Shown: positions 291 to 3,133 of the stretch, piece by piece | Layout: every line of letters begins with the position of its first letter | Position numbering within the stretch: position 1 is the first letter of the stretch | Assembly: GCF_057098645.1 (NCBI RefSeq) | Contig: NZ_JBXSPU010000007.1 | From: a plasmid | Length of the DNA stretch: 3,133 bases | Direction: 5' to 3' (one strand) | Made by a program: the position numbers and the translations under genes | Notes under the pieces: model-generated | Seen by the model: the letters and a program-made list of their open reading frames with translations, nothing else | Databases searched by the model: none | Told to the model about the DNA's origin: nothing

Positions 291-338
291 AAATATAACA
301 AAAAAGCCCACTACAGAGTGGGCTTTTTTGTTATATTT
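291..338. terminator. Bidirectional rho-independent terminator: perfect 22-bp inverted repeat with 4-nt loop
   Basis: aaatataacaaaaaagcccact-acag-agtgggcttttttgttatattt. GC core gcccact/agtgggc flanked by an A-run on one side and a T-run on the other, so either strand yields stem plus U-tract. Confidence 0.75.
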
Positions 339-1450: not shown

Positions 1451-2056
1451 CAGTGTTCCTACACCAGACAGGATGCAGAACGATATACCGGTGCGTAAGG
1501 AGAAAATACCACATAAGGCGCTCTTCCGCTTCCTCGCTCACTAACTCGCTACGCTCGGTCGTTCGGCTGCGGCGAGCGGTATCAGCTCACTCAAAGACGG
1601 TAATGAGGTTATCCACAGAATCAGGGGATAACGCCAAAAGAAACATGTGAGCAAAAAACAAGAACCCGAAAAAGGCCGCGCCGGTGGCGTTTTTCCATAG
1701 GCTCCGCCCCCCTGACGAGCATCACAAAAATCGACGCTCAAGTCAGAGGTGGCGAAACCCGACAGGACTATAAAGATACCAGGCGTTTCCCCCTGATGGC
1801 TCCCTCGTGCGCTCTCCTGTTCCTGCCTTTCGGTTTACCGGTGTCATTCCGCTGTTATGGCCGCGTTATCTCATTCCACGCCTGACACTCAGTTCCGGGT
1901 AGGCAGTTCGCTCCAAGCTGGACTGTATGCACGAACCCCCCGTTCAGTCCGACTACTGCGCCTTATCCGGTAACTATCGTCTTGAGTCCAACCCGGAAAG
2001 GCACGACTTATCGCCATTGGCAGCAGCCACTGGTAACTGATTTAGAGGAGTTAGTC

Positions 2057-2200: not shown

Positions 2201-2229
2201 AGATTACGATGGGCGCGATATGAACTCAA
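2201..2229 (-). promoter_or_regulatory. RNA II promoter (-35 TTGAGT at 2229..2224, 17-bp spacer, -10 TAATCT at 2206..2201, minus strand)
   Basis: Matches pBR322 RNA II promoter ttgaga...gcgtaatct. Confidence 0.6.
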
Positions 2230-2299
2230 GGAAATCCGCAATTAAATTATAAAAGTTTGTGGATTAATGGAAAAACTGATGTGAATCAGCTATTTATCC

Positions 2300-2328
2300 T
2301 TAAGATTTGATGTCAGATATGGTATAAT
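2300..2328 (+). promoter_or_regulatory. Strong sigma70-type promoter with extended -10 (-35 TTAAGA 2300-2305, 17-bp spacer, TGgTATAAT 2320-2328), directed toward the Abi gene 3' end
   Basis: Consensus TATAAT preceded by TGn, with a 4/6 -35 at optimal spacing. Sits in an AT-rich tract divergent from the RNA II promoter. Predicted start about 2334-2336. Confidence 0.55.
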
Positions 2329-2401
2329 TAACCATTCAAATAGATGGAATAAAAAGTCAACGCTGCCATTAGAACGGCATAAGAAATAGAGGATTATGAA
2401 A

Positions 2402-2545
2402 ATGAATACTAAAGTTCTTTTTGTGAAAAAAGCCTTGAAATCAATTACTTGCGCAATTCTTTCGCTCTTACCGGCTTTAAGTCGCGCAGTAACAGAGTTA
2501 CGTAGCCTTTCGGCTGCGCGACTTAAAGCCGGTAAGAGCTTTTGA
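2402..2545 (+). CDS. Hypothetical small ORF (47 aa from ATG 2402; 49 aa from ATG 2396) running through the hairpin
   Basis: MNTKVLFVKKALKSITCAILSLLPALSRAVTELRSLSAARLKAGKSF. AGAGGA lies 8 nt upstream of ATG 2402. Against coding: the ORF contains both arms of a perfect 26-bp inverted repeat and its stop sits in the post-stem U-run. Confidence 0.2.
   Translation: MNTKVLFVKKALKSITCAILSLLPALSRAVTELRSLSAARLKAGKSF
2464..2539. repeat. Perfect 26-bp inverted repeat with 24-nt spacer (large hairpin/cruciform). Intrinsic terminator for the plus strand, and possible 3' stabiliser for Abi mRNA on the minus strand
   Basis: gctcttaccggctttaagtcgcgcag (2464-2489) is the exact reverse complement of ctgcgcgacttaaagccggtaagagc (2514-2539). 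The spacer taacagagttacgtagcctttcgg holds the mini-hairpin taac-aga-gtta and the palindrome tacgta. A U-run cttttgattg follows on the plus strand only. Confidence 0.9.
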
Positions 2546-2569
2546 TTGTATCACATTTTTCCTTAAAAG

Positions 2570-3133
2570 TCAACCGGCTACCTTAAGCTCCCTGCACTTA
2601 ATCCTCCCTATAATCCCCATAACATACTCTATCGTGCAGCGTTCATAAAAGCGCCTATCGTGCCCAATAAACTCAATAAGTTCCTTTTTCTCGTTAGAGA
2701 CGATACTCAAGGCATTCATTAAAAAATTGAACTCTTTCAACATATTATTTATGGCTTGACTATGCGACTTGCAGTGGTGTTTTTTCCAAATAGGCTCATG
2801 GTGAAAAAGTCGATTCCTAAACAAAAGAACTTTATGAAACTCGTCAAACAACGCTTTAACCTTCATATCCCCCCCACCCAAAGGATTCTTCGCATGAGGA
2901 AATGTTTTTGCCTTGTTCTCTGGAGTCCAGATGTAGCACGGCCTTTGCGTATCCCTATATGGGGCATCTAACATATAAACCCAAAAGCCAAAGGTTAGAC
3001 GGCAAATAACATCATCATCCGTATACCTTACGCCACACTCATCTAGCGCTTTTTGTTTCGCATTTAAAACAAGATCCTGAGATTTCTTTGTTTGAGGTAT
3101 AGAGTCGTACCAAGCAGGCCCATGATTAGCTTT
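2570..3133 (-). CDS. 3' portion (C-terminal 187 aa) of an Abi_2-family (AbiD/AbiF-like) abortive-infection protein; ORF open at the right edge
   Basis: The track ORF 2570..2974 extends in frame, with no stop found by hand translation, to 3133: ...KANHGPAWYDSIPQTKKSQDLVLNAKQKALDECGVRYTDDDVICRLTFGFWVYMLDAPY... It contains LTFGFW (Abi_2 middle motif 'lsFG') and LFRNRLFHHEPIW (Abi_2 C-terminal motif 'RN..AHH..lW'). Stop is TGA at 2570-2572. Confidence 0.7.
   Translation of the reverse strand, partial: KANHGPAWYDSIPQTKKSQDLVLNAKQKALDECGVRYTDDDVICRLTFGFWVYMLDAPYRDTQRPCYIWTPENKAKTFPHAKNPLGGGDMKVKALFDEFHKVLLFRNRLFHHEPIWKKHHCKSHSQAINNMLKEFNFLMNALSIVSNEKKELIEFIGHDRRFYERCTIEYVMGIIGRIKCRELKVAG

Follow-up and report, generated by a model that had tools for sequence, protein, structure and literature searches.

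A 338-bp hairpin unit beside the Abi gene of a small ColE1-type plasmid: a possible antisense-faced small-ORF cassette confined to one plasmid lineage

The window analysed here, that is, the whole 3,133-nucleotide (nt) stretch of contig NZ_JBXSPU010000007.1 (NCBI RefSeq assembly GCF_057098645.1), is a complete circular ColE1-type plasmid of 3133 bp. Over its full length it is 99.9–100% identical to twelve 3133-bp records from E. coli and Salmonella, and about ten further plasmid records of 3125–3131 bp show 95–97% identity to the window. Between the promoter of RNAII, the replication primer, and the stop codon of a gene for an abortive-infection (Abi) protein, a unit of 338 bp (2232–2569) fills the gap, and within it lies a perfect 26-bp inverted repeat. 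An earlier note on this DNA had described a strongly promoted, highly structured small unit, convergent with and abutting the Abi gene, and had proposed it as a possible RNA partner of the Abi system. The predicted elements support the description. The left end given there, 2226, falls inside the -35 element of the RNAII promoter, and the note had missed the circular plasmid context, a Shine-Dalgarno (SD) sequence with its open reading frame (ORF), a second promoter facing the first, and the upstream RNA partners known for AbiF-type proteins. The unit and its immediate surroundings contain the following features.

2201–2229, - strand: ColE1 RNAII promoter, TTGAGT-17-TAATCT, by pattern match; left boundary of the unit, given for context only
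2272–2290, - strand: weak terminator-like hairpin GCUGAU-UCAC-AUCAGU with a U-run, predicted in the minimum-free-energy fold
2300–2328, + strand: P(+), predicted extended -10 promoter, TTAAGA-17-TGgTATAAT
2389–2393, + strand: putative SD sequence GAGGA, 2 nt before ATG 2396 and 8 nt before ATG 2402
2396 or 2402–2545, + strand: small ORF of 49 (ATG 2396) or 47 (ATG 2402) codons, crossing both hairpin arms, with its TGA at 2543–2545
2464–2539, both strands: perfect 26-bp inverted repeat with a 24-nt loop
2540–2549, + strand: U-rich tail UUUUGAUUGU, directly after the stem, with the TGA inside it
2545–2573, - strand: P(-), predicted promoter facing P(+), TTGACT-17-TGaTACAAT, its -35 element overlapping the Abi stop codon
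2570–3133, - strand: 3' part of the Abi gene (250 aa, WP_016249639.1), stop codon 2570–2572
1–189, - strand: 5' part of the Abi gene, ATG at 189–187

The extended -10 promoter, the inverted repeat and the U-run on which the earlier description was built are all present where it had placed them, far beyond what chance would produce. P(+) carries TGGTATAAT exactly at 2320–2328 and would start transcription at about 2335, hence about 129 nt upstream of the hairpin, in good agreement with the roughly 130 nt proposed before. P(-) would start at about 2538, the first base of the hairpin. These two, lying about 200 bp apart, are the only sites in the whole plasmid that match the consensus at 10 or more of 12 positions and also carry the TG; none of 1000 shuffles of the 369-bp region contained two such promoters, and the hexamers of both are invariant in seven plasmid variants. 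Judged by its match, P(-) looks as strong as P(+). Downstream of P(-) we found no minus-strand ORF of at least 15 aa, and its product would thus be an untranslated RNA, antisense to the small ORF, the SD sequence and P(+). The weak hairpin at 2290–2272 may end this RNA at a length of about 265 nt. The -10 box of P(+) also lies inside a small palindrome, ATGGT-ATAATTA-ACCAT (2319–2335), which would form a hairpin in the predicted antisense RNA and could be an operator or a chance occurrence.

The two arms of the inverted repeat (2464–2489 and 2514–2539) are complementary at 26 of 26 positions. When the window was dinucleotide-shuffled 100 times, its longest perfect inverted repeat was 8.3 bp on average and at most 11. 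The predicted free energy of the folded RNA is -55.4 kcal/mol for the + strand, at z = -9.7, and -56.8 kcal/mol for the opposite strand, z lying between about -9 and -10 in either case, and the 24-nt loop forms two mini-hairpins, cleanest on the - strand, namely GCC-GAAA-GGC, with a GAAA tetraloop, and GUAAC-UCU-GUUAC. On the + strand the stem is followed by UUUU (2540–2543) and then GAUUGU, or 7 U in 10 nt, whereas the tail of the hairpin on the - strand is GAAAGAAUUG; the G+C-containing stem with a direct U-tract that defines an intrinsic terminator is therefore found on the + strand and not on the - strand. Both the stem and the loop are far larger than is usual for such terminators, and our terminator scan accepted loops of 3–8 nt only, which places this hairpin outside its range. 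Comparison of the unit with known RNA families returned only spurious hairpin matches of the microRNA type, all below the gathering scores. In all good sequences the arms are invariant except for one natural variant (L172), in which an A to G change keeps a G.U pair in the + strand RNA; the covariation test suggested in the earlier note thus has no statistical power on the stem.

The small ORF is called as a hypothetical protein in most records by the NCBI pipeline PGAP, with ATG 2402 as the start. An SD sequence followed by an ATG and an ORF of 47-codon size arose in 0.3% of shuffles of the region. The predicted 47-aa peptide has a net charge of +8 and a maximal Kyte-Doolittle hydrophobicity over 19 residues of 1.65 (VLFVKKALKSITCAILSLL), which is borderline for a membrane helix. 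A word search of 5.8 billion clusters returned only near-identical copies from this plasmid, and an exhaustive HMMER scan of 1.84 billion protein representatives likewise returned no relatives of the ORF beyond such copies. Against Pfam and PADLOC the peptide had no family match at expect values (E) up to 1, and no homology to described type I toxin families (Hok, Ldr, Ibs, TisB, ShoB, Fst, TxpA and others) was found. A lipoprotein or an exported protein with a signal peptide was also considered and, as a judgement by eye only, set aside, since the peptide lacks a lipobox and has a weak hydrophobic core. Among plasmid variants, the 119 nt from 2315 to 2433, comprising the -10 box of P(+), the leader, the SD sequence and the first 12 codons, are invariant, in a unit that overall varies at about 4% of its sites.

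Because of the joint improbability of these signals, the invariance of 2315–2433 and the G.U-preserving arm variant, we favour the reading, with a probability of roughly 0.4, that the unit at 2232–2569 would be a sense/antisense mini-cassette, self-contained and specific to one lineage, which a single family of 3.1-kb ColE1 plasmids carries as additional cargo. P(+) would transcribe an mRNA of about 210 nt with a 60-nt leader, on which the good SD sequence would drive translation of the 47-aa strongly basic, moderately hydrophobic peptide. This mRNA would end at the 26-bp hairpin and its U-tract, which as a terminator would lie within the second half of the ORF. From the facing side, the untranslated RNA made from P(-) would begin with the hairpin itself and thereby have a protected 5' stem, and this RNA would run antisense across the ORF, the SD sequence and P(+). 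The two RNAs, and the polymerases making them, would oppose each other by antisense pairing and by transcriptional interference, and the resulting logic would be that of a type I toxin-antitoxin locus or of an antisense-controlled small gene. We infer from the sequence elements that both promoters would fire, that the RNAs would start and end as given, and that the ORF would be translated into a peptide with an action of its own. Further points in favour are the restriction of the U-tract to the + strand, the lack of a minus-strand ORF after P(-), the independence of the unit from the Abi gene (see below) and the orphan status of the peptide. Type I toxins are often orphans.

Several observations weigh against this reading. 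Among six known type I toxins, the Kyte-Doolittle maxima are 2.2–2.5 for five and 1.67 for LdrD, so that the peptide is less hydrophobic than most of them. The small ORF has accumulated three synonymous and six non-synonymous changes, which corresponds to a ratio of non-synonymous to synonymous polymorphism (pN/pS) of about 0.6, or 0.9 uncorrected, the count excluding pseudo-substitutions caused by loop inversion; on these nine changes there is no sign of purifying selection on the peptide. A perfect 26-bp stem is also odd inside a protein-coding region and would make the message a substrate for RNase III. The two promoters are predicted, being known as consensus matches only, and their seemingly equal strength differs from classical type I systems, in which the antitoxin RNA is usually in excess. 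Finally, in one metagenome contig the ORF is frameshifted by a deletion in the loop. This contig (L020, 576–640 of a single 768-bp contig) has lost 13 nt, CGTAGCCTTTCGG; its stem is now a perfect 30 bp closed by a loop of 3 nt, and the frameshifted ORF is extended to 77 aa.

In connection with known systems, the closest likeness is to type I loci such as par/Fst of pAD1 and txpA/RatA and bsrG/SR4 of Bacillus subtilis. As predicted for the unit, a separate promoter drives a peptide ORF of fewer than 60 codons, a second promoter facing it produces an untranslated RNA in cis, and the two transcripts meet at a stem-loop that they share; these loci, too, may be plasmid-borne and without detectable relatives. 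The type I-like layout pointed out in the earlier note is thus real, but the antisense partner suggested by the sequence is the product of the unit's own P(-), a predicted cis-encoded RNA that has its own promoter and overlaps the putative toxin mRNA, and not the Abi mRNA. The unit also departs from these loci: its peptide is borderline hydrophobic with a charge of +8 and lacks homology to any known toxin family, its toxicity is putative, the hairpin would serve as the sense terminator and as the 5' end of the antisense RNA rather than as the antisense terminator, and the predicted antisense RNA would cover the whole ORF and the sense promoter. A second likeness is to convergent-promoter switches, prgQ/prgX of pCF10 and pR/pL of phage 186, where strong promoters likewise face each other about 200 bp apart, a layout that should give transcriptional interference and antisense RNA; those switches control large operons and a regulator gene, whereas here only a 47-codon ORF lies between the promoters. 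The unit is most likely an uncharacterised antisense-faced small-ORF cassette of a known kind. If this were borne out, a working antisense-controlled peptide module of this sort would represent an undescribed, homology-invisible family among the type I-like loci of enterobacterial plasmids.

The absence of relatives and the pN/pS of about 0.6–0.9 would also be expected if the unit were a non-coding small RNA gene or a functionless relic, the ORF being incidental and the palindrome a recent, near-neutral product of template switching. In line with this, the unit is as variable as the non-essential backbone, and the invariance of the arms is probably not significant given the small number of substitutions. 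Loop-deleted and fold-back variants moreover mark the palindrome as prone to rearrangement, or at least to misassembly. On the other hand, two strong promoters together with an SD-linked ORF are very unlikely to arise by chance, the 119-nt stretch from the promoter to codon 12 is invariant, and no plasmid of the lineage, whatever its host or continent, has lost the unit. On balance we regard this alternative as rather unlikely, though it deserves to be kept in view.

The palindrome has left traces of a different kind in public data. One draft contig reverses at the hairpin (L021, 1–480, a fold-back chimera) and another is an error-rich fragment of 484 nt (L022), and such palindrome-derived artefacts have created spurious protein variants (P0067–P0069) in the public protein collection. 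The variant small proteins were therefore set aside as uninformative, P0068 coming from a fold-back chimeric contig and P0067 from a low-quality contig. We also considered a flip/flop inversion of the loop, as might arise by hairpin-primed replication or in an invertible switch. An exact reverse-complement loop occurs in two metagenome contigs only (L019, 3073–3150; L093, about 1939). Among the 27 complete E. coli genomes with the unit, a search with the inverted loop gave no match above 93.4% identity, and the orientation of the loop was the same in 27 of 27. The inverted loops are most likely short-read assembly artefacts or a rare event. These anomalies show that the palindrome confuses assemblers and are no evidence of biology.

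The constant loop orientation also bears on the possibility that the element acts at the level of DNA. Extruded from supercoiled or single-stranded DNA, the hairpin might, for instance, serve as a priming signal once the plasmid has been mobilised, or offer a cruciform for a protein to bind. The perfect 26-bp arms would indeed fold equally well on either strand, and the plasmid is typed as mobilisable, with an annotated mobA/NikA-like gene and what we take, by eye only, to be a bom-type origin of transfer (oriT). The stem, however, contains no promoter-like or known priming motif, the plasmid has no second copy of the element, and searches of phages, other plasmids and viral contigs found nothing related to it. 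The transcription signals on either side suggest a role as RNA, and the L172 variant, which keeps RNA pairing through the G.U pair and breaks DNA pairing, leans the same way. A function as DNA therefore seems highly improbable. Two other identities were ruled out: the hairpin is not a miniature inverted-repeat transposable element (MITE) or a repeat resembling repetitive extragenic palindromes (REP) or enterobacterial repetitive intergenic consensus (ERIC) sequences, as it is present in single copy and in one plasmid lineage only, and it is not cer or Rcd, as the Xer core lies elsewhere, at 431–458.

We now turn to the Abi gene. In the record the gene spans the origin (2570–3133 and 1–189, - strand) and hence appears truncated in a linear reading. 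The protein matches the PADLOC model PD-T4-5 with E = 6.6e-30 over residues 4–229 and Pfam Abi_2 with 19.9 bits, under the cutoff of 25.6. It carries the HEPN R-x4-H motif, R169-N-R-L-F-H174, which is invariant in 38 homologues. The profile match together with this motif places the predicted protein within Abi_2/PD-T4-5. Its sole match in the PDB is 8VZ6, the complex of AbiF with its non-coding RNA (ncRNA), and this match is weak (E = 0.39). The protein is a distant relative of AbiF and AbiD, with homologues forming 63 clusters down to 26% identity. PD-T4-5 itself was described as a plasmid-borne, single-gene abortive-infection relative of AbiF/D (Vassallo et al.; PMC9519451). The antidote of AbiF is an ncRNA encoded in cis, RCd22/AbiFr; situated upstream of abiF and on the same strand, it is co-transcribed with the gene and contains the abiF motif RF03085 (PMC12373285, PMC12737573). 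The statement in the earlier note that Abi_2 proteins have no known RNA partners is thus out of date.

The proposal of a partnership took the form of a + strand RNA acting as a cis-antisense regulator or antidote of Abi through overlap of the 3' ends, with the Abi mRNA reading into the hairpin. The geometry would allow this. The two units are convergent, with 30 nt between the end of the hairpin and the Abi stop codon and 24 nt between the two stop codons, and since the hairpin lacks a U-tract on the - strand, transcription of Abi probably continues into the hairpin or past it. Within the lineage, unit and gene also always occur together, including derivatives with an IS91 insertion and an IS26-flanked copy in a chromosome record. 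Beyond the lineage the association disappears. All copies of the 338-bp unit, in 23 PLSDB records and in 27 of the 5426 complete E. coli genomes, belong to this lineage of plasmids; none was found in phage records or viral contigs, and no related element in other plasmids. Homologues with 67% (L009–L015) and 55% (L095) identity reside on ColE1 plasmids in the same slot and orientation, and there the Abi stop codon lies about 30–40 nt from the RNAII promoter with no unit between. Three homologues of 53–56% identity on other replicons (L173–L176) have ordinary genes downstream of Abi and no comparable hairpin or small convergent ORF. About 100 further Abi loci, genomic and metagenomic, were compared over the 350 nt downstream of the gene: the best perfect inverted repeats there measured 5–10 bp, apart from two of 14 and 20 bp, with loops of 10 and 4 nt, that look like ordinary terminators, and no small convergent ORF recurred. 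The search of other Abi loci called for in the earlier note thus returned nothing comparable, and the co-occurrence with Abi homologues in other genomes that would be expected of a conserved family partner was not seen.

The experimentally validated PD-T4-5 clone points in the same direction, as it is active as a single gene with flanks of only 184 and 46 nt, which leave no room for the unit. Among the plasmid variants, about 0.8% of sites vary in Abi and its upstream region (2570–3133 and 1–300), with two synonymous and two non-synonymous changes in the gene; the hairpin unit is about five-fold more variable (about 4%), and the rop/origin backbone (1000–2000) varies more. The low variation of Abi relative to the unit and the backbone suggests that the Abi module entered the lineage later or was exchanged not long ago. 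The RNA partners known for AbiF, furthermore, lie upstream and are co-directional, and a conserved upstream motif is present here too (see below), whereas the unit is downstream, convergent, on the opposite strand and absent from homologous loci. The protein beside the unit is distantly related to the RNA-regulated AbiF family, whose ncRNA antitoxins include RCd22 in C. difficile and AbiFr, the partner of PbAbiF (PDB 8VZ6), but RF03085 had no match in the whole window at E up to 1. On these comparisons the unit does not form a conserved part of the Abi defence gene, and we consider it unlikely, though conceivable as an effect specific to this lineage, that it acts on Abi through overlapping 3' ends or read-through. 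For phage defence this means that the PD-T4-5-like Abi does not need the hairpin unit.

A more elaborate link to Abi is suggested by the course of the small ORF, which spans the whole terminator and stops inside the U-tract. In an attenuator of the pyrBI type, a ribosome on the ORF would block the terminator, and read-through transcription, antisense to Abi, would track the translation status of the cell. Like the unit, the pyrBI leader of E. coli has a leader-sized ORF (44 codons, compared with 47–49 here) that runs through an intrinsic terminator hairpin, a geometry in which a closely following ribosome would suppress termination. The strong SD sequence and the U-rich runs preceding the hairpin fit such a scheme, and a pN/pS near 1 fits an ORF whose translation, rather than its sequence, matters. 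The regulated same-strand gene that should follow is lacking, however, the only sequence downstream on the + strand being the antisense of Abi; the stem is far longer than that of pyrBI and is perfect, there is no evident link to nucleotide pools, and the arrangement is found at no other Abi locus. As the model was drawn from geometry alone, we think it very unlikely. The same low estimate applies to its extension, in which the unit would be a lineage-specific add-on controller: ribosome-gated read-through of the terminator would silence the HEPN Abi gene by antisense transcription in healthy cells, and phage-induced loss of host transcription or translation would lift the block. Improbable as it is, this would be a new way to couple an abortive-infection gene to the state of the host expression machinery.

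The position of the unit, exactly at the junction of cargo and replicon, raises a further possibility, namely that the hairpin and the opposing promoter form a transcriptional insulator, shielding the RNAII promoter and thus copy-number control from cargo transcription. A perfect 22-bp terminator hairpin at the other end of the cargo would suit this arrangement. Read in the direction shared by Abi and RNAII, however, the hairpin is followed by no U-tract, and P(-) itself would fire toward RNAII. Moreover, six comparable plasmids, namely the plasmids with the 67% and 55% Abi homologues and four related ColE1 plasmids with other cargo, have no junction hairpin of at least 9 bp, by which a general role as a ColE1 junction terminator was rejected. 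Insulation is accordingly an unlikely purpose of the unit, and a mini-cassette with its own sense and antisense transcripts remains the reading we prefer.

If a regulatory or RNA partner of this Abi family is to be sought, a conserved motif upstream of the gene appears to be a better candidate than the hairpin unit. The relevant features, together with those of the plasmid backbone, are as follows.

244–291, - strand: 48-nt conserved motif TTACGCTCTAGAGGTACACAGAAAAAC..GTTCGCCTGCTCCTCGA, upstream of Abi and about 55 nt from its ATG in the window
291–338, both strands: perfect 22-bp hairpin with a 4-nt loop and A6/T6 flanks, immediately 5' of the motif; looks like a bidirectional terminator
431–458, - strand: cer-like XerC/XerD core GGTGCGCGTAA-GGGGAG-TTATGGTAAAT, at the other edge of the cargo region
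648–971, - strand: small mobA/NikA-like gene, by annotation
1256–1450: rop, by annotation
2095–2195, + strand: RNAI (Rfam RF00106, 95.9 bits)

The motif, with the pattern TTACRYTCTAGAGGTACAC..AAAAC..GTTCG..GCTCCTCGA, is nearly invariant in homologues of 47–67% protein identity on unrelated replicons (L009–L015, L095, Aeromonas L173, L174 and L175/L176), where it was located at 1410–1457 in L009, 1352–1406 in L095, 1873–1921 in L173, 1901–1947 in L174 and 1892–1939 in L175. A hairpin stands at the same position in homologous loci. A covariance model built from these loci recovers the motif at 63–74 bits, always upstream of Abi and on the same strand, and gave one weak match (E = 0.1) in the right place at a 34% homologue. 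RNAalifold predicts a GAGG/CCUC stem and an inner stem; in the latter, compensatory changes occur alongside broken pairs. Marine-gamma and beta-proteobacterial clades have conserved Abi leaders of their own, with a hairpin in the same place and the shared elements TCGCT(T)ACC and AAAAC..GTTCGCC; stem covariation across the clades (CCGG/CCGG, TCGG/CCGA, CCAT/ATGG, CAG/CTG) was read by eye only. In Arsukibacterium (L023) two copies of the motif stand in tandem (2254–2301 and 2305–2352), about 200 nt from the ATG. The Rfam abiF model, RF03085, had no match in 150–460 at E up to 10, nor in 12 homologous loci at E up to 0.1. A scan of viral contigs with a loose pattern of the motif yielded more than 120 matches, as expected by chance for 15 specified bases, and was not used.

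The motif could be an AbiFr-like ncRNA or a DNA operator of the PD-T4-5-like family. Together with its hairpin it is the more promising lead. It parallels the type III-like arrangement of AbiF and its ncRNA. That arrangement is thought to be ancestral to Cas13.

As regards the plasmid as a whole, the features of a ColE1-type replicon that we looked for in the window, namely RNAI, the RNAII promoter, rop and the XerC/D core, were all found. The hexamers of the RNAII promoter at 2201–2229 are those of the pBR322 RNAII promoter, and the bom-type oriT, recognised by eye only, would lie at about 1000–1070. A promoter-like site, TTTCCA-16-TATAAT, matching at 10 of 12 positions and without the TG, lies just upstream of the RNAII promoter at 2246–2273 (- strand) and points into it; it may be a chance match in AT-rich DNA. 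RefSeq annotates a 37-aa 'replication initiation protein' (WP_071790583.1) at 1927–2040 (+ strand), by its coordinates within the RNAII/origin region. Since ColE1 replication requires no plasmid Rep protein, this name is probably an annotation artefact.

Lastly, everything from 2232 round to about 430 can be regarded as cargo. The lineage that carries it is widespread, with isolates from humans, pigs, poultry, cattle, dogs and water. Closely related ColE1 backbones (L297, NZ_CP054944.1; L298, NZ_CP149224.1; L300, NZ_CP065608.1) hold other cargo in the slot between the RNAII promoter and cer, which looks like a swappable cargo bay. Two of these alternative cargoes are themselves defence-like, one a NERD-domain gene and the other a pair of genes with an NYN domain and a helix-turn-helix (HTH), and on the related backbones the cargo gene adjacent to the replicon is always transcribed toward RNAII.

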